A stretch of DNA of 64,000 nucleotides, from the sequence record NC_048195.1. One strand, 5' to 3'. Position 1 is the stretch's first letter. Each line of letters begins with the position of its first letter. Positions 1 to 16,342 of this stretch are shown piece by piece. Both the position numbers and the translations under genes were made by a program. The DNA comes from Escherichia phage vB_EcoM_WFC. A model generated the notes under the pieces. That model saw only the letters and a list, made by a program, of their open reading frames with translations, was not told where the DNA came from and made no database searches.

Positions 1-68
1 ATTTTAAAAACATTTATATTAATTTTTTTCATATCCTCATACTTATGTTAATTTATATATTTAACGTA

Positions 69-131
69 TTATCCGTAAGATATAAGTAAAAACAAAGACT
101 TGCGGCAATACGGATGATACGTCATGATACG
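69..131. repeat. Iteron-like repeat units (TTATCCGTA; ACGGATGATACG-TCATGATACG) in AT-rich region
   Basis: Read directly: attatccgtaag at 69-80 and atacggatgatacgtcatgatacg at 108-131; same unit family recurs at 15969-16234. Confidence 0.5.
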
Positions 132-335
132 CTTCGACCAGCCAGCAGCGGCTAAGTCATTGATTTGCATAACAAGCGGCAAAAGGGATGGATTTCTTTT
201 ATACGTATCAAACAGTACACCACGCACCACGGTCCGCAATCCACGCAGCATTATGATTTGTGTACTTTTATAGCCATAATGAACATCAATCTGCACTTGA
301 ATATAATGTCCATCCATTGTATAATTCACACTATT

Positions 336-1543
336 AATTTGCACTATGGGATTTTGCACTATGAGTCAAGATTATGTAGCGATGCCTGAAGACTTTGAAG
401 ACCCGCGATTCGCAGAGCACAATCAGGCTTTATTCGATGAGTTCATTGACCTTGTTATTCAGGGCCATGACATGCGCGCAGCTTTTGCACTAGTATTTGG
501 AATGGAAGTTGCAACGGATAACTACACTGGCCAGCGAATCCTTTGCACGCAACGCAATCCATACTACAAGATGCGCTTCAAAAAGCGTATGGAAGAGATG
601 CCACTCAAGGATTTGTGGAGCGTAAAAGGTGCAATTCACAATTTGGTCAAGCTTGTGCGTGATCCAGAAGTCGCGGCGTCAGCCAAGCTTAATGCTATTC
701 GTGAACTGAATATCATCTACGGCATCACGATGATTGATGAAAACGGCAATAGTAAAATGGGCCGTTCCATGGACGATTTCTACAAGGATTTCGGAGAGGC
801 GGCCAAAGAAGGCGAGCAATTTTCCCGCCACTAGCCAATTTGCACTATAAAACGGCCCTAGAACACATTTTCTCCACTTCTAGGGCCATCGGTAATACGA
901 CGGGGAAGGTTGCAACCATAAACGCGTTAGAAAGTGTATTATTATAAGTCATCTTTTAGTCACTTTACGTAACAATTTACGACCTTCAACCGTCCAATCG
1001 AACGACTCCACCAGCAGATTCGCACTATAACCTAAGACGATGCGCCCTTTCTCGTTATCGACCCGCCAACAAGTCTCGAATAGCATTCGATTTGCACTAT
1101 TAACTATTGCCGCAACTCGCGTAGGATAAGCGCAATTTGCACTATGGTCGTAAAGGGATAAGGTGCGACCACTTCCGATGGACAACGTAGCGATGAGAAT
1201 AAGCGTATTCATAAGCCACCAATTTGCACTATGAAAAGCGACCCCGAAGGGCCGCCATTCGATTAGATAATCTGGAAGGTATAGGACTTGTTGCCGAACT
1301 CGAAGTTCAAGCGTCCAGCTTCTTTAAGCTTCATGCGGAAGCGAATGTGCTTGCTATCCGGTAAGCCCAGCGCGGCGAACGCTACGCGGACCGATTTGAA
1401 CTCGCCTACACCCTCGACCATAACGCCGTTACGGGTAAGACGCTTTTGCGCCACTTCCTTATTATCCCAACTTTTTGCAATGCCTTCGCTATTCGAACGG
1501 CGATGGGAAGGAGTTCCATTTTGCACTACGCAATTTGCACTAT
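336..1543. repeat. Dispersed 12-bp motif AATTTGCACTAT (about 9 copies incl. variants)
   Basis: Copies read at 336-347, 351-362, 837-848, 1018-1028 (ATTCGCACTAT), 1089-1100, 1134-1145, 1221-1232, 1518-1529 (..CACTAC), 1532-1543; two tandem pairs spaced about 14-15 bp. Confidence 0.6.
346..834 (+). CDS. Hypothetical protein (162 aa)
   Basis: Six-frame ORF; alternative in-frame ATG at 361; both starts sit directly after a GCACTAT motif copy. Confidence 0.5.
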   Translation: MGFCTMSQDYVAMPEDFEDPRFAEHNQALFDEFIDLVIQGHDMRAAFALVFGMEVATDNYTGQRILCTQRNPYYKMRFKKRMEEMPLKDLWSVKGAIHNLVKLVRDPEVAASAKLNAIRELNIIYGITMIDENGNSKMGRSMDDFYKDFGEAAKEGEQFSRH

Positions 1544-1889
1544 CGTTTAAACCGCTCTTAACGAAGGCTTCATACTCTTCGTCGGTCATCGCGTCGAGTT
1601 CTTCCTGCGTCGGCTCGGCCTTTTTAACGACCGCACGCGCCTTATGCGTTTTTACATCGCTGGACACTTCCTCGCGAGACTTCGCGTCGGGGATGGGCGA
1701 TTCGTTGGACGGCTCATCGAGCGCGTTTAAGGACTCGATTAACGCTATTACGCGAGTCTCGGCGGTCCGGCGGTCCGCAAATTTTTTAATCGGCTTCGAA
1801 CCGGAATTTGCATTATAAAATGCAACGAGGTCGGCGGTCTTAGTTGCGATAACGTCGCCGCTAGTCGAGAAACGATTTAAGCTAACCAT
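1263..1889 (-). CDS. Hypothetical protein (208 aa)
   Basis: Long ORF with protein-like composition; lies in CG-dinucleotide-rich island with distinct codon usage. Confidence 0.5.
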   Translation of the reverse strand: MVSLNRFSTSGDVIATKTADLVAFYNANSGSKPIKKFADRRTAETRVIALIESLNALDEPSNESPIPDAKSREEVSSDVKTHKARAVVKKAEPTQEELDAMTDEEYEAFVKSGLNDSANCVVQNGTPSHRRSNSEGIAKSWDNKEVAQKRLTRNGVMVEGVGEFKSVRVAFAALGLPDSKHIRFRMKLKEAGRLNFEFGNKSYTFQII

Positions 1890-1969
1890 AATGAACTCCT
1901 ATTTGTTAGGGCGCTAGGCGCGAAAGAATTTTATTAAAGCGCCGCGCACGACGCTCTAAAAATCCTCTC

Positions 1970-2284
1970 TTACTCTTCGTCATCTTCGATTAATTCGAGG
2001 GCGAAGGCGTAAGCTTTGCTATCGTAATTAACTAAAACGGCGAGTTCGAACTCGTTAATAAACGCCGTTTTACCGCATAAATTTAATTCCGCATCGACTT
2101 CGAAGAATCCGTTTTCGTCGCGCTCTAAGCGAGAAGCAGCGAGTTGCTCGATTACCGTCGCGTCGTTAATTTCTTCGCCTAAGCGAACGCCGGAGAATTT
2201 CGCGAGAATTTCGCCGTAAGTAAGCGTAACGCCCTGGACTTCGGCGGTTGCGTTTTCGAGGGTAAAGCGGGTAACGATAGCCAT
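1970..2284 (-). CDS. Hypothetical acidic protein (104 aa)
   Basis: ORF ending in acidic tail EDDEE; same island composition. Confidence 0.5.
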   Translation of the reverse strand: MAIVTRFTLENATAEVQGVTLTYGEILAKFSGVRLGEEINDATVIEQLAASRLERDENGFFEVDAELNLCGKTAFINEFELAVLVNYDSKAYAFALELIEDDEE

Positions 2285-2424
2285 AATAAACTCCTAGTTG
2301 GGAGAGGCGTTAACGACCTATTCGTTAACTCATCCCGTCCCGATATGAGTACATTATAATATAGTGTAGAAAAAAGTAAAGCACTTTTTCGATAAAAATG
2401 CGATAAATTATTTTATCTTTTTTC

Positions 2425-2452
2425 TTTACTTCTTCGTACACTCGCGTATACT
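2425..2452 (+). promoter_or_regulatory. sigma70-like promoter (TTTACT-N16-TATACT) with conserved leader
   Basis: -35 TTTACT 2425-2430, -10 TATACT 2447-2452; 19-bp block CTTTACTTCTTCGTACACT identical to copy at 2823-2841. Confidence 0.4.
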
Positions 2453-2508
2453 TGTTTATATCGAGACGGGCGATGGCCCTTTCTTCTACTAGCATCGGGA
2501 GCTTTATT

Positions 2509-2811
2509 ATGACTACTTTAATCTCTTCCATCCTTACTTACGACGAAGACCGCTTAACCGTTCGCTCTCTTATCGCCGCCGTTAACGCGGAACTAGAATC
2601 TAGCGCCATTAAGGTCCGCGCGGTCGCCTTCATCGGCCTTTCCTTCGACGATATGAAGTATGCCGAACGTAGCGCCATCCGCTTCGCGAAGACCGACGAC
2701 GAAGCCGTTACCCTTATCGAGACGGTTACGCCGCGCGGCGAAGCGTTAATTATCGTCGAGTATATCGACGTAGAAGGCGATAAATCTTATAAACATTTTA
2801 TCGCAGAATAA
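2509..2811 (+). CDS. Hypothetical protein (100 aa)
   Basis: ATG at 2509 preceded by GGGAG RBS; track ORF begins at an upstream TTG (2452). Confidence 0.55.
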   Translation: MTTLISSILTYDEDRLTVRSLIAAVNAELESSAIKVRAVAFIGLSFDDMKYAERSAIRFAKTDDEAVTLIETVTPRGEALIIVEYIDVEGDKSYKHFIAE

Positions 2812-2823
2812 CGAAAAAAGTGC

Positions 2824-2852
2824 TTTACTTCTTCGTACACTAAGACTATAAT
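2824..2852 (+). promoter_or_regulatory. sigma70-like promoter (TTTACT-N17-TATAAT) with conserved leader
   Basis: -35 TTTACT 2824-2829, -10 TATAAT 2847-2852; shares TTTATATCGAGA-GGG leader element with promoter at 2425. Confidence 0.45.
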
Positions 2853-2919
2853 GTTTTATATCGAGAGGGGATGAGGTAGCGAATAGGTCGCTACCCTCCC
2901 GACTAACTAGGAGAATATT

Positions 2920-3210
2920 ATGATTACTTTAGCCGCTATCCGTTCCGCTCGCGTCGAAACTTCCGAAAACTCTAACGTATTTGGCGAAAAACTTAAAAAC
3001 GTTTATCTTTTTAACGTAGATGCGACTATCGAGGAGCTTCATAGTCCTATCGATTTTAGCGAATTTACGGAACTCGAAGAGGAAGATATTTCTACCTTCC
3101 GCGTTACTATCGAAGGCAAGGTTTATTTTGCTACGGAGTTCGGCGGCGAATATCTCGCGGTATCCGAAGGCGAAGGCCGTTACTCTTTCTTTAAAATCGT
3201 TTCCTTATAA
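2920..3210 (+). CDS. Hypothetical protein (96 aa)
   Basis: ATG at 2920 preceded by AGGAGA RBS. Confidence 0.55.
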   Translation: MITLAAIRSARVETSENSNVFGEKLKNVYLFNVDATIEELHSPIDFSEFTELEEEDISTFRVTIEGKVYFATEFGGEYLAVSEGEGRYSFFKIVSL

Positions 3211-3229
3211 TACCCATCCGTTACTAATA

Positions 3230-3255
3230 GGCCGCGCTTAGTCGCGGCTTTTCTT
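3230..3255 (+). terminator. Rho-independent terminator
   Basis: GCCGCG stem / CGCGGC with 6-nt loop followed by TTTTCTT, directly after stop at 3210. Confidence 0.6.
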
Positions 3256-3375
3256 CGTCCCTATCTCGATGCGCTTCTCCGCGAAAACTCCTTTATCCTT
3301 CCCTTCGTCGTCGCATAATCTTCGTCGAGATGCGCCTTAGTTCGCATAACAGGTATTACGTTAAATGGAGAACAT

Positions 3376-3448
3376 CGCGTAAGTCGTTGTTTTATATAGA
3401 CACCTATATCGGACCGTTAGCGAGGGTCGCGTAAGTCGTTGTTTTATA
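3376..3448. repeat. 21-bp direct repeat CGCGTAAGTCGTTGTTTTATA x2
   Basis: Identical copies read at 3376-3396 and 3428-3448 in noncoding region. Confidence 0.6.
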
Positions 3449-3573
3449 AAGGCGCAAAACTTTCCCTTCGTTCCGAACTAAAACGAGGAATATGCCGACC
3501 CTTCGCCCGAAAATAGTACGCATGCGATATTACCGACATCTAGAATAATCCCTCCCGATATTATTACGCGCTC

Positions 3574-3636
3574 AATCATTAGCTTTCGAATCATTATGCT
3601 GCATACTATTATGCGCCAAATCATTAGCCTTCGAAT
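3574..3636. repeat. 18-bp direct repeat AATCATTAGC(T/C)TTCGAAT x2
   Basis: Copies at 3574-3591 and 3619-3636 (1 mismatch); TGTAACG also duplicated at 3637-3660. Confidence 0.55.
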
Positions 3637-3909
3637 TGTAACGCTGGAAACTGTAACGTCGATTGATTATTGCGTTCGTGTGGTTTTTAGGACATGGGTC
3701 TTTTGGTGCGTTTTGCTACTTGATGGAATTTGCAGTACACTAATCAAAATACGACACATTTGGTCCACTAACTTTTCAAAGAAAAAGTCCTAGACAGTAC
3801 CGTACTATTTTGTACCCACAGGAAATTTGCCGTACACTCCTGCGCGGCAGGCAAAATAAAGGGGCCGCACTAAGCGACCCACGATTCACGGTTAAATCAG
3901 CAACACCCA

Positions 3910-4290
3910 CTATTCACTCTTATGGGCATCACCAAAGCCATCAGCAATCTGGCTGATCAACGACTCAATGGACACGGTTTTACCAATTGATCGAGCGGTA
4001 ATAGCAAGCATATTATCAATCAAACCACGATTGACTTCACATGTTCCAGGCTTTGACTCATCTTTAGGACCACCAAAAAGCTGGTCGCGCAGACTTTCAA
4101 GAGAACGCTCAATATTTTCCAACTTCTCTTCTAAATCGGATTGGCGACGTAAAACCCACGTCAAGTCACGGTTGCCAACTTCCAATCCATCAGAATAGCA
4201 AGGTGGAGCGTCAATTTTGATGCTGGAACCAAAAGCAATGCCGCTGCCTTTAGTATATGTGTGGCTAATAGAATCATTTTTATTTGACAT
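3910..4290 (-). CDS. Hypothetical protein
   Basis: Start refined to ATG at 4290 (AAAGG RBS) inside track ORF 3910-4356. Confidence 0.45.
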   Translation of the reverse strand: MSNKNDSISHTYTKGSGIAFGSSIKIDAPPCYSDGLEVGNRDLTWVLRRQSDLEEKLENIERSLESLRDQLFGGPKDESKPGTCEVNRGLIDNMLAITARSIGKTVSIESLISQIADGFGDAHKSE

Positions 4291-4469
4291 ATCATTACCT
4301 TTAATATTTGGGTGATTAACAATAACTATAATAAAGCCGCATAGCGCGGCATTCAAATCGGTTTGTTAATTGTAACGATTGAATTTACTTATCCAACCAA
4401 TCAATAAGCGCAATCATGGCTACAACAAATACTGCACTTATTGCTAATATGATCAAAAACATCACGAAA

Positions 4470-4706
4470 TCAACGTTCATCAATCGATACCAATTGTGCA
4501 GGGTCGCCGGATACAGTTGCGCCGATGATACCCATCTGAGAGAAAAATTCTGAATAAACTTCCTTCCAGTACTTGCGCGCAGCTTTCTGGGCTTGACCTT
4601 TTCGCTTGTAGCTTTTACCTTGGAAGATGAAACGGTCGTTTGCCGCGTTATATTCCACCACACCTTCCAGCCATTGTAAGAATGCTACTGATTCATTTTG
4701 ATTCAT
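4470..4706 (-). CDS. Hypothetical protein (78 aa)
   Basis: ATG at 4706 preceded by GAGG RBS. Confidence 0.5.
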   Translation of the reverse strand: MNQNESVAFLQWLEGVVEYNAANDRFIFQGKSYKRKGQAQKAARKYWKEVYSEFFSQMGIIGATVSGDPAQLVSIDER

Positions 4707-4713
4707 GTTAACC

Positions 4714-5181
4714 TCAATATTTTAATAAGAAAGCACCCAACCAACTTTCCTCAATCTCGCGGCCAGTAGCCACACGGTCGGTCTTGGCTATGGGTCTGGA
4801 TTCGCCGCAGGGCAATCCGTCCTGTAGTTGTGTACTATTGCCAATTCTCACCAGAACCTTTCCATCAGGGTCGATATAAGCGCGACAACCCATGATTTCG
4901 AGTCGTTGTAGACACTGGCGAATCGTTTTCAGCTTCTCACCGGACCGGATAGAGCGCGGTCGCGACCGCTGACCGTTCTTATTCACTGTACGCTTGAAGA
5001 CCGGAATATCATTGGTGCGTTGCGGCTTGGGTCGGTAATAAGCCTCTTCGCCAGGAGTCGCACCTGGCGTCAATTCGCGCTTGAGCGCCTTTTCAATATC
5101 AATGATCATAATTATGCCGCAGCAGCGTGAATTATTGCGTAAACAATTCCTAACAGGGCGACAACGCAAATCGTGCCCCAA
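4714..5181 (-). CDS. Hypothetical basic protein
   Basis: Track ORF; real start may be internal ATG at 5109; start uncertain. Confidence 0.4.
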   Translation of the reverse strand: MGHDLRCRPVRNCLRNNSRCCGIIMIIDIEKALKRELTPGATPGEEAYYRPKPQRTNDIPVFKRTVNKNGQRSRPRSIRSGEKLKTIRQCLQRLEIMGCRAYIDPDGKVLVRIGNSTQLQDGLPCGESRPIAKTDRVATGREIEESWLGAFLLKY

Positions 5182-5214
5182 AATGCAAAGCGCCGTGCCT
5201 CTTTATCCATTTAT

Positions 5215-5490
5215 TTATCCCCCAACGTCCATGAAATTAAACACTAATTTTGCCATGTCATCTTGTGAAAAGACACTGTAGTGTTTAGGCAAATTGCTTT
5301 CTGACAATACCTTCTGGGCTTCTTCTGCTGTCTCAAATAAAGGAATGCACCAATTAACTGCATCGCCAGATTCATTGCTATCAACTTGCTTTAAGAAAAC
5401 CAAGCGGTTATCTTCAGGATCAATACCGCAGATGACATATTTAGGCAAGGCCTTTGCTTTCTGAGCTTTATCAATATCTTCAAATTTCAT
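5215..5490 (-). CDS. Hypothetical protein
   Basis: Start refined to ATG at 5490 with GAGGTG RBS. Confidence 0.5.
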   Translation of the reverse strand: MKFEDIDKAQKAKALPKYVICGIDPEDNRLVFLKQVDSNESGDAVNWCIPLFETAEEAQKVLSESNLPKHYSVFSQDDMAKLVFNFMDVGG

Positions 5491-5544
5491 AAAACACCTC
5501 ACTTGTTAACGTATAATGAGTATAACTTAATTGCGCATAAAGTA

Positions 5545-5564
5545 AAGGCGCTTTTCAGCGCCTT
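5545..5564 (-). terminator. Hairpin downstream of tail fiber gene (putative terminator)
   Basis: AAGGCGC/GCGCCTT stem with 6-nt loop; weak T-tract on minus strand. Confidence 0.35.
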
Positions 5565-9166: not shown

Positions 9167-9343
9167 ATTACCTCCGGTTTTGAGTTAATATGATTATAAC
9201 GCAGAGTCTCAGAAAGGCAAACTTTTTGTGAATTTTAATCAAAAAAATGGCCAGAAAAAATCTGGCCGAAAGATCACCCTTTATCCACTACTAAGCTGGA
9301 ATCATAATTTTACTTGATATAGCTTGTACAAGCAAACTATAAT

Positions 9344-10804
9344 ATGAATAAAATATTAACACATAATTGGAAATTCATGTACCAGTTGAATCCTGCTTTA
9401 AAAGAAGTCTGGAAGACAAAAGCGCGATACAAAGTAATATACGGCGGTCGTGCATCTTCCAAATCGCATGATGCCGCTGGTTTTGCTATTTATTTGGCGG
9501 CAAACTTCAAATTAAAATTCCTTTGCGTTCGACAATTCCAGAACAAGATTTCTGAATCTGTATATACTCTATTAAAAGATAAAATAGAGATTTCTGATTT
9601 TAAAGATGAGTTCAATTTATTAAAGAACTCTATCGAGCATAAAAGAACTAAATCTGAATTTCTATTTTACGGTATCGCACGTAACGTTGATGAAATTAAA
9701 TCAACGGAAGGTGTTGATGTTCTTTGGCTGGAAGAAGCGCACGCACTTACTGAAGAACAGTGGGACATTATTGAGCCGACAATCCGTAAAGAAGGGTCAG
9801 AAATATGGATCATCTTTAACCCTGATGAAGAGGCCGATTTCGTCTACCAAAACTTTGTTATGCGACCGCCGAAGAATGCCATAGTTAAAAAGATAAACTG
9901 GCAAGACAACCCATTCTTGTCGCAAACAATGCTGGATGTTATCGCAGGCATGTACGAGCGCGACCCGAAAAAGGCAGAGCACGTTTATGGCGGCGTGCCG
10001 AAGACTGGCGGCGATAAATCTGTAATCAACCGTGCATTCGTTAAGGCCGCTCTTAATCTCCACAAACACCCTACGCTGGGCTGGAGTTTGTCAGGGTCTA
10101 ACCGTATAGGCTTTGACGTAGCGGACGATGGCGACGACCTTAACGCCACTGCATTCGTCACAGGAAACGTATTGCGCGGCATCAAGACGTGGGAAGGTCT
10201 GGAAGATGAATTGTTGAAATCGGCAAGCGGAGTTTGGAAAGATGCGCTTACATTTGGCGCTTCTATAACTTATGACGCCATCGGTGTCGGCGCTTTTGCT
10301 GGTTCAAAATTTGATGAACTAAACGAGTATGCAATACATGAAAATCCATCATTTCCAAGAATCGAATTTAATGCGTTCAACGCGCAAGGGTCTGTTGATG
10401 ATCCTGATGACGTTTTTCTTGAGCTACCACACGTTGAAATACTCAATAAAGACCATTTCGCAAACATAAAAGCGCAAAAGTGGACTGAAATTGCAGAGAG
10501 ATTCAGAAAGACATACGAATATGCAACTGGGCAAGCCGTATATCCGACTGATGAATTGATTTCAATCGACACCGATGGTATACCGGAACTTGGGATTCCA
10601 GCTTGGACTACTGAAGAGATTGAGACGTTTCTTTTTGAGATGTCAGCGCCGCGCAAAGATACGTCTGTTCTTGGCAAGTTCAAAGTTGAATCTAAAAAGG
10701 ATATGGCAAAGCGTGGAGTCAAATCACCTAACAAAGCGGACGCAGCAATCATGGCATTGATGAAACCAATCGTTGCAGCATCCGGCTTCTTCTCTAACCT
10801 TTAA
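9344..10804 (+). CDS. Terminase large subunit
   Basis: 486 aa; Walker A-like YGGRASSKS, LWLEEAH, IIFNPDEE nuclease-domain-like motifs; precedes portal. Confidence 0.85.
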   Translation: MNKILTHNWKFMYQLNPALKEVWKTKARYKVIYGGRASSKSHDAAGFAIYLAANFKLKFLCVRQFQNKISESVYTLLKDKIEISDFKDEFNLLKNSIEHKRTKSEFLFYGIARNVDEIKSTEGVDVLWLEEAHALTEEQWDIIEPTIRKEGSEIWIIFNPDEEADFVYQNFVMRPPKNAIVKKINWQDNPFLSQTMLDVIAGMYERDPKKAEHVYGGVPKTGGDKSVINRAFVKAALNLHKHPTLGWSLSGSNRIGFDVADDGDDLNATAFVTGNVLRGIKTWEGLEDELLKSASGVWKDALTFGASITYDAIGVGAFAGSKFDELNEYAIHENPSFPRIEFNAFNAQGSVDDPDDVFLELPHVEILNKDHFANIKAQKWTEIAERFRKTYEYATGQAVYPTDELISIDTDGIPELGIPAWTTEEIETFLFEMSAPRKDTSVLGKFKVESKKDMAKRGVKSPNKADAAIMALMKPIVAASGFFSNL

Positions 10805-11584: not shown

Positions 11585-11622
11585 ATAGATTGATTCCCTT
11601 TCACTGTCAGGTGGCGTTAACA

Positions 11623-13998
11623 ATGAAAATTCTTGGCATAAAACTCTGGGAGAAGACGCAACCAGAAGCCGAACCAGCGGAGATGCCGCCAGGCGACCCA
11701 TTGGCACCGTTTGAACGCCTGGAAAGGCGCGGCAGCGGTCAACGCTGGGATAAGACCGAAAGCAACCGCCCGACCTTTAAAACCGTTGATGACTTTCCTT
11801 TATATGAGCCTGATATCAACGGGGACGGTGTTGCAATCATCAAAGGTCGCTCAGTAGATTCAGCAACCGTATCCAAAAAAGTTATGGATAATGCTTTGAA
11901 GAACATCAGTTCAGAAGGGCAGGTTAATCCATACACAGTACCTATTCAGTTGCAAAACTGGTACTTATCGCAATCATTTATCGGATATCAAGCTTGCGCC
12001 ATCATCGCGCAGCACTGGCTGGTGAACAAGGCTTGTTCCATGGTAGGCCGCGATGCGGTCCGTAAAGGCTGGGAAGTCAAATCCAGTTCTGAGTCCGAAT
12101 TATCAGTGCAGGCCAGCGAACGCCTAAAGCAAATTGATAAAGAATTTAATATCAAAGAGCACTTAGTTGAAGCCGAACGATTCAAAAATATTTTTGGTAT
12201 CCGCGTCATCATATTTGATGTGCGTAGCGATGACCCAGAATACTACAGTAAACCTTTTAACATTGATGGTGTGACAAAGGGGTCTTATAAGGGGATCATT
12301 CAGGTTGACCCTTATTGGATGATGCCATTTCTGACGTCTGAAAACACCGCCGACCCTGCTTCACAGCACTTTTATGATCCAGAATACTGGGTGATCAGCG
12401 GACAACGTTATCATCGCAGCCACCTCATCATATTGCGCAACGATGAGCCAGCTGATATTCTTAAGCCGACTTACATCTACGGCGGCATTCCTCTAACTCA
12501 GCAGATTTATGAACGCATCTATGCCGCTGAACGTACCGCTAACGAAGCACCATTGTTGGCGATGTCTAAACGTACAACGACACTACGGACCGACGTTGAC
12601 AAGGCGATTGCCAATGAGCGGTCTTTTGCCGAACGCCTGATGATGTGGATTAAGTACCGCGACAACTATGCTGTTAAGGTACTTGGCCAAAAAGAAGAAA
12701 TGGACCAGTTCGACATCAACTTGTCAGACTTCGACAGCATCATCATGAACCAGTACCAGCTGGTGGCCGCAATCGCAAAAGTTCCGTCGACCAAACTGCT
12801 TGGGACTTCGCCAAAAGGCTTTAACGCCACTGGTGAATTTGAGATGGTCAGCTATCACGAAGAGTTGGAAACGTGCCAGCAGCATGACCTGACAAAAATT
12901 CTCGACCGCCATTACAAAATCCTTCTCAAATCAGAAGGGGTGGAAGTCGACGTTAAGGTTGCATGGGAACCAGTTGGCTCACTTACTGCTACTCAACTTG
13001 CAGAAATCAACGACAAGCGAGCTAACACTGGCAAAACTCTCATTGATGCTGGCGTCATTTCTCCTGATGAAGAGCGCGACCGCATCAAAGACGACAAAAA
13101 CAGCGGTTACAACCGTCTGCCGGAAGATGCAGCAGAAGAAACCCCAGGGATGTCTCCAGAGAATATGGCATTGCTTGGCAAGTCTGCTGGTGAAGTCCTG
13201 CAAGGTAAGGCTGATATTGAACAGGCAAAAGCTGATGTCGTTAAGATGGGCGGCCAGTTCTATAGCGAGACTGGTATTATGCCAGAAGGTGCCGCGCGTG
13301 GTGAGTTGGCGGAAAACCCTGACAGAGCACCTGTCGAAATTAACATGGACGATACCGATGATGAATCAAACCATCAGGTTGATGTCCTAACGCAGTTGAA
13401 AGAAGGTCTGGAGGGTATTGCGGATTACTACCTGAAAGAAGGTCAGGATGTGGATTTTGACCCTCAAAAAGATTCACGGTCGGTGCAGCCGTCTACCCTT
13501 CCAAGCGTCAAAGGTAATGTCGTAAACTTACGACACAACGTTGGCGAGATGGACGCAGCATCATTACCTAAGATGAAGTTGCACGGAATGATTCTTGGGA
13601 TTGAGAATCCTCGCAACAGCATCCGTAGAGGAAATAGCCTTGACGGTGAATGGGCAGTCAAGATGCCGCACCACTACGGATTCATCAAAGGCACCAAGGG
13701 CGCGGACGGCGATGAAGTCGACTGCTTTGTTGGCACAAATCTGAAGTCGCCGAAGGTCTTTATCGTGAACCAAAACGATAACTACTCTGGCGAGTTCGAT
13801 GAACACAAGTGCATGCTTGGATTCGATTCAGCAGAAGAAGCAAAAGAAGCTTATCAGGCATCATTTGGTAACGGTTGGAACGGATTCGACTCAATCCACG
13901 AATTAGATGTGAACTCATTCAAAGAGTGGTTGAAGGGTGATTGCTCTCAAGCATACGGAGCACTCAATAATCCTACTAATTCACCGAAGCAAGGTTGA
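11623..13998 (+). CDS. Portal protein with C-terminal extension carrying an inorganic-pyrophosphatase-like motif
   Basis: About 790 aa; position after terminase; C-terminus has HHYGFIKGTKGADGDEVDCFV matching the family I PPase pattern D-[SGDN]-D-[PE]-[LIVMF]-D-[LIVMGAC]. Confidence 0.7.
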   Translation: MKILGIKLWEKTQPEAEPAEMPPGDPLAPFERLERRGSGQRWDKTESNRPTFKTVDDFPLYEPDINGDGVAIIKGRSVDSATVSKKVMDNALKNISSEGQVNPYTVPIQLQNWYLSQSFIGYQACAIIAQHWLVNKACSMVGRDAVRKGWEVKSSSESELSVQASERLKQIDKEFNIKEHLVEAERFKNIFGIRVIIFDVRSDDPEYYSKPFNIDGVTKGSYKGIIQVDPYWMMPFLTSENTADPASQHFYDPEYWVISGQRYHRSHLIILRNDEPADILKPTYIYGGIPLTQQIYERIYAAERTANEAPLLAMSKRTTTLRTDVDKAIANERSFAERLMMWIKYRDNYAVKVLGQKEEMDQFDINLSDFDSIIMNQYQLVAAIAKVPSTKLLGTSPKGFNATGEFEMVSYHEELETCQQHDLTKILDRHYKILLKSEGVEVDVKVAWEPVGSLTATQLAEINDKRANTGKTLIDAGVISPDEERDRIKDDKNSGYNRLPEDAAEETPGMSPENMALLGKSAGEVLQGKADIEQAKADVVKMGGQFYSETGIMPEGAARGELAENPDRAPVEINMDDTDDESNHQVDVLTQLKEGLEGIADYYLKEGQDVDFDPQKDSRSVQPSTLPSVKGNVVNLRHNVGEMDAASLPKMKLHGMILGIENPRNSIRRGNSLDGEWAVKMPHHYGFIKGTKGADGDEVDCFVGTNLKSPKVFIVNQNDNYSGEFDEHKCMLGFDSAEEAKEAYQASFGNGWNGFDSIHELDVNSFKEWLKGDCSQAYGALNNPTNSPKQG

Positions 13999-15968: not shown

Positions 15969-16234
15969 GACGTATCATACGTATCAAGTAAGTTATTGTT
16001 TTCAAAAGAATCTTACGGATGATACGGATGATACGCGTTGCCGCCGTACTATATAGGAATTCAAATAAATTAATTTAAAATTATATATCTAATTTAATTT
16101 TATTTTTTTATAAACTCTTATATATGAAAAGTATCCGTATCATCCGTATCATCCGTAGCACACCAGTGATAGCGCGGCTTATACACCGATACGGATAAAA
16201 ATACGCCTCATTTTATCCGTATCATCCGTATCAC
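15969..16234. repeat. Inverted iteron cluster flanking about 100-bp AT-rich core (candidate origin/operator)
   Basis: TACGGATGATACGGATGATACG at 16014-16035; reverse complement at 16136-16157 and 16213-16233; variant at 15969-15985. Confidence 0.6.
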
Positions 16235-16342
16235 ACTAATAAAGGCGCGGCTATATCGGTTGTTATACATATTCAAACCATAATTATTGTTTGCCTAAGT
16301 TTTTTTCATTAGATATAATACACAATACTTATTTGAGGGTGG

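Follow-up and report, generated by a model that had tools for sequence, protein, structure and literature searches.

The 64,000-nucleotide stretch of Escherichia phage vB_EcoM_WFC DNA analysed here (the window; sequence record NC_048195.1) contains, between two converging transcription units, an untranslated block that holds pairs of short direct repeats and, in all probability, an end of the phage genome (Table 1). On the left, the block is preceded by the plus-strand gene 2920-3210, which belongs to the direct terminal repeat (DTR), and on the right it is followed by a minus-strand set of genes running from the tail fibre gene 7929-5572 down to gene 4290-3910. The terminators on the two sides of the region are real; the left one had been noted in a preliminary description of the sequence, and the minus-strand one is also annotated in the WFH record (3880-3862). 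That description, in which the DTR was not recognised, had offered a regulatory switch between divergent transcription units as one reading of the region. The units on the two sides (2920-3210, plus strand, and 4290-3910, minus strand) converge and therefore do not share a control region. Additionally, no good sigma-70-like promoter was found within the block, the two 9/12 matches both being on the minus strand; strong promoters of the form TTTACT-N16/17-TATAAT are present within the DTR.

Table 1. Features of the block, the terminal repeat and the terminase genes, in window positions.
Feature	Position	Strand	Remarks
Left DTR copy	1..3703		end placed by homology to four related genomes
TerS, small terminase subunit	346..834	+	PDB 7UXE, E=6e-34; within the DTR
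Intrinsic terminator	3229..3250	+	closes DTR gene 2920-3210; 100% identical in 17 genomes
Conserved non-coding block	3251..3861		between convergent terminators; all repeats and the DTR boundary inside
25-mer, copy 1	3375..3399	+	TCGCGTAAGTCGTTGTTTTATATAG
25-mer, copy 2	3427..3451	+	52 nt start-to-start from copy 1, about 5 helical turns
45-nt tandem duplication	3558..3647	+	units 3558-3602 and 3603-3647, 78% identical, head-to-tail
TGTAACG x2	3637..3658	+	45-66 nt before the boundary; invariant in 17 genomes
DTR inner boundary, right physical genome end	3696..3710		GGGTCTTT|TGGTGCG, predicted cut 3703|3704
15-mer, copy 1	3727..3741	+	AATTTGCAGTACACT; just outside the DTR
Alternative right end, WFC's own record	3778..3790		...CAAAGAAA|AAGTCC, between 3784 and 3785
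15-mer, copy 2	3824..3838	+	AATTTGCCGTACACT
Intrinsic terminator	3862..3880	-	closes the minus-strand block, gene 4290-3910 and the upstream tail-fibre genes
TerL, large terminase subunit	9344..10804	+	Pfam Terminase_3, E=3e-37; presumed nuclease and motor

Genome ends and the inner boundary of the terminal repeat

Positions 1 to 3784 of the window are identical to positions 68689 to 72472 of the 72,472-bp source record (0 mismatches), and the genome is therefore deposited with a DTR at both ends. Position 1 of the window is the physical left genome end: records of related phages that were opened at the terminus begin with homologous sequence, and the first 60 nt are identical between the SP13 record and the WFC window. 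For Wifcevirus, a direct terminal repeat of about 3.7 kb has been described, together with abrupt read ends in both WFH and WFC (PMC6563267).

The right end was placed by comparison with four related genomes. In WFH, Ro157lw and SP13, the records with a DTR at both ends, the sequence finishes at ...GGGCATGGGTCTTT|TGGTGCG, and the repeat predicted by PhageTerm for Mansfield (1-3673) stops at the same junction, which is the homologue of 3703|3704 in WFC. Measured up to this shared junction, the DTR is 3701 bp long in WFH, 3533 bp in Ro157lw, 3899 bp in SP13 and 3673 bp in Mansfield. The placement of the boundary draws on reads from three laboratories (WFH, Ro157lw and Mansfield) and on the record layout of SP13; the ends of Ro157lw, which was classed as having a 'T5-like long DTR' (PMC6454146), and those of Mansfield (PMC6753283) were both obtained with PhageTerm. 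The sole exception among the five genomes is the WFC record itself, with a DTR of 3,784 bp that reaches 81 bp past 3703, and its end at 3784 either was deposited imprecisely or is a genuine second end. Both candidate ends (3703 and 3784) fall within the repeat region of 3240-3900, and it is very probable that the DTR boundary is located there.

The right ends coincide in four of the five genomes despite a spread of 366 bp in DTR length and of 1,189 bp in the length of the virion DNA, and no trade-off was seen between unit length and DTR length (r=0.06). Therefore, the position of the right end is set by sequence, and headful size was rejected as its cause. With the boundary at 3703|3704, the 25-mers, the 45-nt units and the TGTAACG pair make up the last 45-330 bp of the DTR and are consequently found at both ends of the virion DNA, adjoining the right physical end. 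The 15-mers lie 24-135 bp outside 3703|3704, in the unique DNA directly beyond the left DTR copy.

At the left concatemer junction, a tandem of ACGGATGATACG is located just upstream (two full copies in Bas101 and about one and a half in WFC), followed by an AT-rich spacer of about 90 nt holding the AACTCC|ATTTT end and then by an inverted copy of the motif, CGTATTATCCGTA; a further direct copy lies about 110 nt inside the DTR. A collinear paralogue of this junction, about 230 bp long, is found at 15985-16240, ahead of the capsid-assembly operon; in this paralogue a 22-nt perfect inverted repeat surrounds a 100-nt AT-rich spacer, and it is the most origin-like element in the window. Since the other copy precedes TerS, the most ordinary reading of the two elements is that of a shared late-gene regulatory module.

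Repeat pairs and conservation of the block

The direct repeats on which the preliminary description was based were all recovered, in part with wider limits. Its 21-mer pair (3376-3448) is part of a 25-mer, TCGCGTAAGTCGTTGTTTTATAWAG, whose two copies are identical at 24 of 25 positions. A 22-nt version of this repeat has exactly two sites in the 64 kb at up to 3 mismatches, compared with 0 matches in 100 shuffles, and the pair is kept at 21-24 of 25 identical positions in 17/17 genomes. The left arm of an imperfect inverted repeat (3423-3446/3479-3502) coincides in part with the second copy; as a DNA hairpin, this inverted repeat is only marginal (z=-1.7, with 12 of 200 shuffles equally good). 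The 18-mer pair reported at 3574-3636 is likewise present, at 3574-3591 and 3619-3636 with 17 of 18 positions identical, and constitutes the cores (AATCATTMGCYTTCGAAT) of the 45-nt tandem duplication. In most relatives the core reads ATTCG-CTTT-CGAAT and has dyad symmetry. The two cores are 16-18/18 alike within every genome, while the rest of the tandem drifts to 29-35 of 45 positions, and Bas100 is without exactly one 45-nt unit. The third repeat of the preliminary description, TGTAACG, does occur twice (3637-3643 and 3652-3658); two copies of a 7-mer at such a distance are near the chance expectation, so this pair is no evidence on its own.

A further pair, the 15-mer AATTTGCMGTACACT, had been missed and is kept in all 17 genomes. 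Taken together, the three repeat families (25-, 18- and 15-mer) are kept as pairs in 16-17 of the 17 genomes and, with two to three mismatches allowed, are confined to this locus in the 64 kb, at or beyond the shuffle level. Because they are found nowhere else in the window, the repeats are not dispersed promoter or operator motifs. An unbiased k-mer test additionally returned CCCTTCG three times (at 3301, 3464 and 3499; Bonferroni 7e-4) and AATCATTA three times in the block, and an enrichment of GTAC just outside the DTR was lost after multiple-test correction. Near the block, a micro-expansion was noted in Mansfield, with six copies of ACCCACG. An inverted repeat of 24 nt approximately centred on the junction (3649-3672/3738-3761) was considered as evidence and rejected, because its 7-bp perfect core is expected by chance and no stable hairpin is formed.

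Matches to the region, with identities of 89-98%, come from 27 phage records, each that of a Wifcevirus, a myovirus infecting E. coli or Shigella; the genus is placed in the family Lindbergviridae with the Pseudomonas Pbunaviruses. A search for more divergent relatives by distant blastn returned the same 27 Wifcevirus records only, all at least 89% identical, and when IMG/VR was scanned with TerS, the only matches were WFC, two contigs and one metagenome contig. The comparison with homologous regions of related phages that had been proposed as a check was made on two alignments, one of 17 genomes (2900-4320) and one of 16 (1-5560), and the block is conserved: its mean pairwise identity is 0.945, with 0.87-0.91 in the flanking genes, and reaches 0.964 when segment 3534-3647 is left out. 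In seven nearby genes, the corresponding values are 0.868 for third codon positions and 0.964 for first and second positions, the block being far more conserved than third codon positions (Mann-Whitney p=4e-20). The most conserved parts are the plus-strand terminator (1.00), the 56 nt before the junction (3648-3703; 0.979) and the 25-mer pair (0.973); the least conserved is the 45-nt tandem (0.81-0.88), whose divergence is close to neutral. High identity extends beyond the block, to the DTR as a whole (about 0.95) and to TerS (0.960). Overall, these identities show the non-coding block to be under purifying selection, at a level of constraint that matches an essential gene but does not set the block apart from the rest of the DTR.

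Coding, structural and replication signals

The statement that the region contains no convincing ORF was upheld, as the frames are broken in relatives or are without codon phase. ORFs 3478-3624 (minus), 3596-3793 (plus), 3776-3910 (minus) and 3810-3956 (plus) are broken in 7-15 of 17 relatives, and four ORFs of 31-39 aa are open in 15-16 of 17 genomes, two of them losing the start codon in some. No excess of third-position substitutions was seen in the ORFs that are still open (p=0.37-0.78), and no coding periodicity was detected in the block (3251-3861). At 95% DNA identity open frames are expected by default. Tiny ORFs are annotated within the block in Mansfield (2) and kaset (4), and none by the BASEL curators, in WFH or by most other annotators; those called by some pipelines are almost certainly spurious. 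The block is non-coding, and its repeats are unique in the 64-kb window.

The suggestion of a structured ncRNA locus was not supported. A scan of 2500-4800 against Rfam at E<=10 gave no match within 3251-3861, the only hits (3193-3250 and 4422-4480) being far below the gathering score, and RNA folding of the whole block was less stable than that of shuffled sequences on both strands (z=+1.61 and +1.03); the lack of a promoter points the same way. Variation across the relatives is too low for a covariation test of RNA structure. A scan for tRNA and tmRNA genes found none. When the junction and the individual repeat groups were folded as DNA, nothing significant emerged, and neither a hairpin nor a cruciform was predicted at the junction. 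The DnaA box TTATNCACA (up to 1 mismatch) is absent between 2795 and 4260, the IHF consensus WATCAANNNNTTR has no match in 3251-3861, and the genome-wide counts of both are at chance. In composition, the block has a GC content of 0.39-0.46, with no AT-rich unwinding element and no inflection in GC skew. Two further candidates were discarded: a mini-CRISPR array (25-nt repeats with a 27-nt spacer) gave no Rfam CRISPR-DR hit and no E. coli match, and mimicry of host sequence was rejected on comparison of the whole block with 5,426 complete E. coli genomes, in which no match was found.

A proposed role in end processing and packaging, and the alternatives

Because the end of the DTR falls inside conserved, non-coding, repeat-rich DNA, the block is most likely the signal for the right-end cut, and a probability of about one half is given to its acting in cis in end processing and packaging at the inner (right) DTR boundary. 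The preliminary description had also named a site recognised by packaging or replication proteins; the evidence favours the packaging part of this proposal, as the boundary lies inside the block and the DNA around it is under purifying selection, and a replication origin was not borne out. In the proposed mechanism, replication is assumed to yield concatemers in which unit genomes are separated by one DTR copy; the terminase (TerS and TerL) or a partner nuclease would make a cut at a defined nucleotide to the left and to the right of this copy, which would also be duplicated for each virion chromosome. The right-hand cut would fall at 3703|3704. The repeats would be the recognised elements, with the 25-mer pair, the 18-mer cores and the two TGTAACG copies inside the DTR and the 15-mer pair outside it as candidate protein sites that position the cut and perhaps also start packaging at the boundary, with the motor moving leftward from the cut, or stop it there. 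The convergent terminators would shield the block from RNA polymerase. The TerS gene, about 350 bp from the left genome end, is a candidate trans-acting partner; the Mansfield annotation agrees with its identification.

A number of observations count against an end-processing and packaging role. The TerS of WFC matches PDB 7UXE, the TerS decamer of phage E217, and this homologous protein had no appreciable DNA binding in vitro (PMC9611059). The motif family of the left boundary (ACGGATGATACG) is absent near 3703 and no motif is common to both boundaries; since the left boundary motif family differs, a single recogniser for both ends is not evident. One 45-nt unit is dispensable, as seen in Bas100, and the tandem evolves near neutrality. 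The 25-mers are 250-330 bp from the cut, farther than lambda cosB is from cosN. Additionally, the WFC record ends at 3784, no IHF site was found and the junction has no hairpin.

Comparable arrangements are found in other phages. In T7 and T3, pac elements and arrays of short repeats lie beside a terminal repeat of 160 bp, and these phages are like WFC in having fixed, sequence-defined ends, a DTR, and cis elements with short repeats by the boundary. However, the WFC repeat exceeds theirs 23-fold in length, the WFC terminase is of another family (a Terminase_3 TerL and an E217-type TerS) and there is no sequence similarity. Lambda cosB and SPP1 pac are arrays of TerS-binding repeats beside the terminase cut, and WFC resembles them in having short repeats within a few hundred bp of the cut in non-coding or poorly coding DNA; in contrast, it lacks an IHF site, carries pairs rather than triplets, and has a long DTR rather than cohesive ends or headful packaging. 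The Pbunaviruses (PB1, E217 and Banzai) belong to the same family and have a homologous TerS, and in WFC the TerS gene is far from TerL, as in E217. For Pbunaviruses, headful packaging, circular permutation and the absence of a DTR were reported (PMC12390725), whereas the Wifceviruses have fixed ends and a DTR of 3.5-3.9 kb. It is possible, but doubtful, that the paired sites direct a headful-type, Pbunavirus-like terminase to an additional, sequence-specific cut at a distance of 3.7 kb from the first one, which would convert a permuted genome to one with fixed ends and a long DTR; such sites may also pause entry.

The main rival to the packaging reading is a T5-like injection stop, in which the DTR with its small early genes would enter first and the repeat block would stall entry until early proteins had been made, and to which a small probability is assigned. 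Repeat Region 3 of T5 (9194-10409) is untranslated, straddles the end of the LTR at 10139 and is considered an injection stop signal; among relatives it varies less than the DTR ORFs next to it, and the left repeat is 10.1 kb long (10.1101/866236). In both phages, a long DTR ends within an untranslated block of direct and inverted repeats, this block is better conserved than the ORFs around it, and the WFC layout of a DTR of small genes followed by this conserved block is T5-like. The strong TTTACT-N16/17-TATAAT promoters in the DTR also speak for this rival. Stalling of entry would also be compatible with a packaging role; the T5 block itself contains the repeat end. The WFC block is, however, about 0.6 kb long compared with 1.2 kb, has far fewer repeat types and shows no sequence similarity to that of T5. 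T5 has ordered DnaA-box pairs in large inverted repeats, which Davison tied to the T5 iss, whereas in WFC DnaA boxes are absent (2795-4260, up to 1 mismatch) and the best inverted repeat is one of 24 nt at 71%. WFC is moreover a myovirus of the Lindbergviridae without recognisable A1/A2 genes: Pfam and PHROGs gave no named function on ten neighbouring proteins and name none for the scanned DTR proteins other than TerS, so that no A1/A2-like protein can be identified from these two databases. With published latent periods of 3-5 min (quoted in PMC11990801), entry in two steps would have little time, and the polarity of entry cannot be inferred because the DTR is at both ends.

The remaining explanations do without a role at the genome end. 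Binding sites for regulators (operators or nucleoid-protein sites) or an insulator, with the boundary falling there by coincidence, are unlikely although not negligible: the dyad symmetry of the majority 18-mer core is that of sites for dimeric helix-turn-helix proteins, the 25-mers are spaced by about five helical turns and the terminators are perfectly conserved, but the block has no credible promoter, its motifs occur nowhere else in the 64 kb and the flanking units converge. That the block has no specific function, its repeats being slippage or duplication debris and its conservation a product of recent shared ancestry or recombination sweeps, is improbable. The near-neutral 45-nt tandem with its copy-number change in Bas100, the six ACCCACG copies in Mansfield and the roughly 95% conservation of the whole DTR would fit such an origin; outside 3534-3647, however, identity in the block is equal to that at codon positions one and two and greatly exceeds that at position three in the genes on both sides, a sweep would need to stop exactly at gene borders, and the 25-mer and 15-mer pairs are kept in 17/17 genomes. 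A replication origin with iterons is considered very unlikely: direct repeats in a transcriptionally quiet intergenic block would fit one, but they occur as pairs rather than arrays and are without an AT-rich element, a skew change or DnaA boxes, and the element at 15985-16240 is far more origin-like. Least probable is a gene for a small RNA or small protein: the tiny ORFs annotated in Mansfield and kaset and the four short frames open in 15-16 of 17 genomes are set against the lack of codon phase, the lost start codons, the silence of most annotators, the absence of an Rfam hit, the positive folding z-scores and the missing promoter.

Long DTRs are common in virulent phages, among them T5, SPO1 and many therapeutic candidates, and to our knowledge the recognition of the two boundaries of a long DTR and the duplication of the repeat are not understood. 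PMC6454146, citing Casjens & Gilcrease 2009, describes the mechanism by which long terminal repeats are duplicated as unknown. The DTR of Wifcevirus has been published and annotated; no description of the motifs at its boundary, or of selection acting on them, is given in PMC11990801, PMC6563267, PMC6454146 or PMC6753283. The block is of a known kind, that of cis elements at a DTR boundary, which has not been dissected in this phage group. This study places the right DTR boundary in a 610-bp non-coding block, and as this block is under selection and contains few paired motifs, the candidate cis elements for mutation are narrowed to a small number. Additionally, Wifcevirus records labelled 'circular' hide a genome with fixed ends, and the deposited right end of WFC may be 81 bp off. 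Because Wifceviruses grow on an E. coli K-12 derivative (PMC11990801), such experiments are feasible. If the paired sites do direct a second, sequence-specific cut, the BASEL phages Bas98-101 and E. coli K-12 derivatives would offer the first genetically tractable handle on how long DTRs are generated.

Right end of the terminal repeat and repeat copy number

The terminal repeat of the WFC record itself spans 3,784 bp, ending at 3784|3785, and is thus 81 bp longer at its inner end than a repeat ending at the junction 3703|3704 that is common to WFH, Ro157lw, SP13 and Mansfield. Either the WFC end was deposited imprecisely, or there is truly a second right end or one that varies in position. 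In the 17-genome alignment, the tandem duplication of Bas100 is shorter by precisely one 45-nt unit (at 3574-3618); copy number is therefore variable and one unit is sufficient. Micro-expansions were also seen at the minus-strand terminator (3870-3890; about 3840-3880 in L001, a stretch of a relative's DNA), with approximately six copies of ACCCACG in Mansfield and an additional GCGACCCA in SP13 and Bas99; this segment is slippage-prone.

Left boundary and its paralogue

Over about 230 bp, the intergenic sequence at 15985-16240, upstream of the capsid-assembly operon, is a collinear paralogue of the left-boundary concatemer junction of the direct terminal repeat (DTR), as compared with two stretches of relatives' DNA (L021:5560-5800 and L010:665-905). 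In the 16-kb copy, tandem ACGGATGATACG copies are followed by an AT-rich spacer (100 nt) and then by inverted copies; the spacer of the junction copy contains the physical end, AACTCC|ATTTT. The element could be a shared late-promoter/activator module, a reading prompted by the junction copy preceding the small terminase subunit gene (TerS), or it could be an origin or a nuclease site.

Features in and beyond the terminal repeat
Feature	Coordinates	Strand	Remark
TerS	346-834	+	
Gene in variable cassette	1970-2284	-	
Promoter	2353-2380	-	strong, sigma-70-type
Promoter	2425-2452	+	strong, sigma-70-type
Promoter	2824-2852	+	strong, sigma-70-type
Gene in variable cassette	5215-5502	-	
TerL	9344-10804	+	
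Portal protein	11590-13998	+	802 aa; Phage_portal_3, E=5e-88
Inverted repeat	16014-16035/16136-16157		22 nt, perfect; among inverted copies of 16-kb element
Capsid-assembly operon	from 16343		DUF2213/cement/major capsid

Gene content of the repeat and end type in the family

The small DTR genes are predicted to be driven by three sigma-70-type promoters, in all of which the -35 hexamer is TTTACT, combined with TATAAT or TATACT (9-10/12). Together with conserved surroundings (97-99% in 2300-2500), these promoters fit a host-RNA-polymerase early module within the terminal repeat. Three short cassettes (1900-2300, 4400-4500 and 5200-5500) are absent or replaced in many relatives, with mean pairwise identities of 0.28-0.58, whereas the surrounding DNA is 90-98% identical; they resemble hypervariable slots for accessory genes. 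In ECML-117-type phages, an extra 210-nt ORF lies between the gene at 2920-3210 and its terminator.

TerS is encoded within the terminal repeat, so that each virion DNA holds two copies, and lies 8.5 kb from the large subunit gene (TerL), with the minus-strand tail-fibre block intervening. The portal protein carries an inorganic pyrophosphatase-like domain in its C-terminal part (PF18823 InPase, E=8e-46). Pbunavirus relatives, whose TerS is homologous, have been described as packaging by the headful mechanism with no DTR (PMC12390725), which suggests that the end type switched within one virus family.
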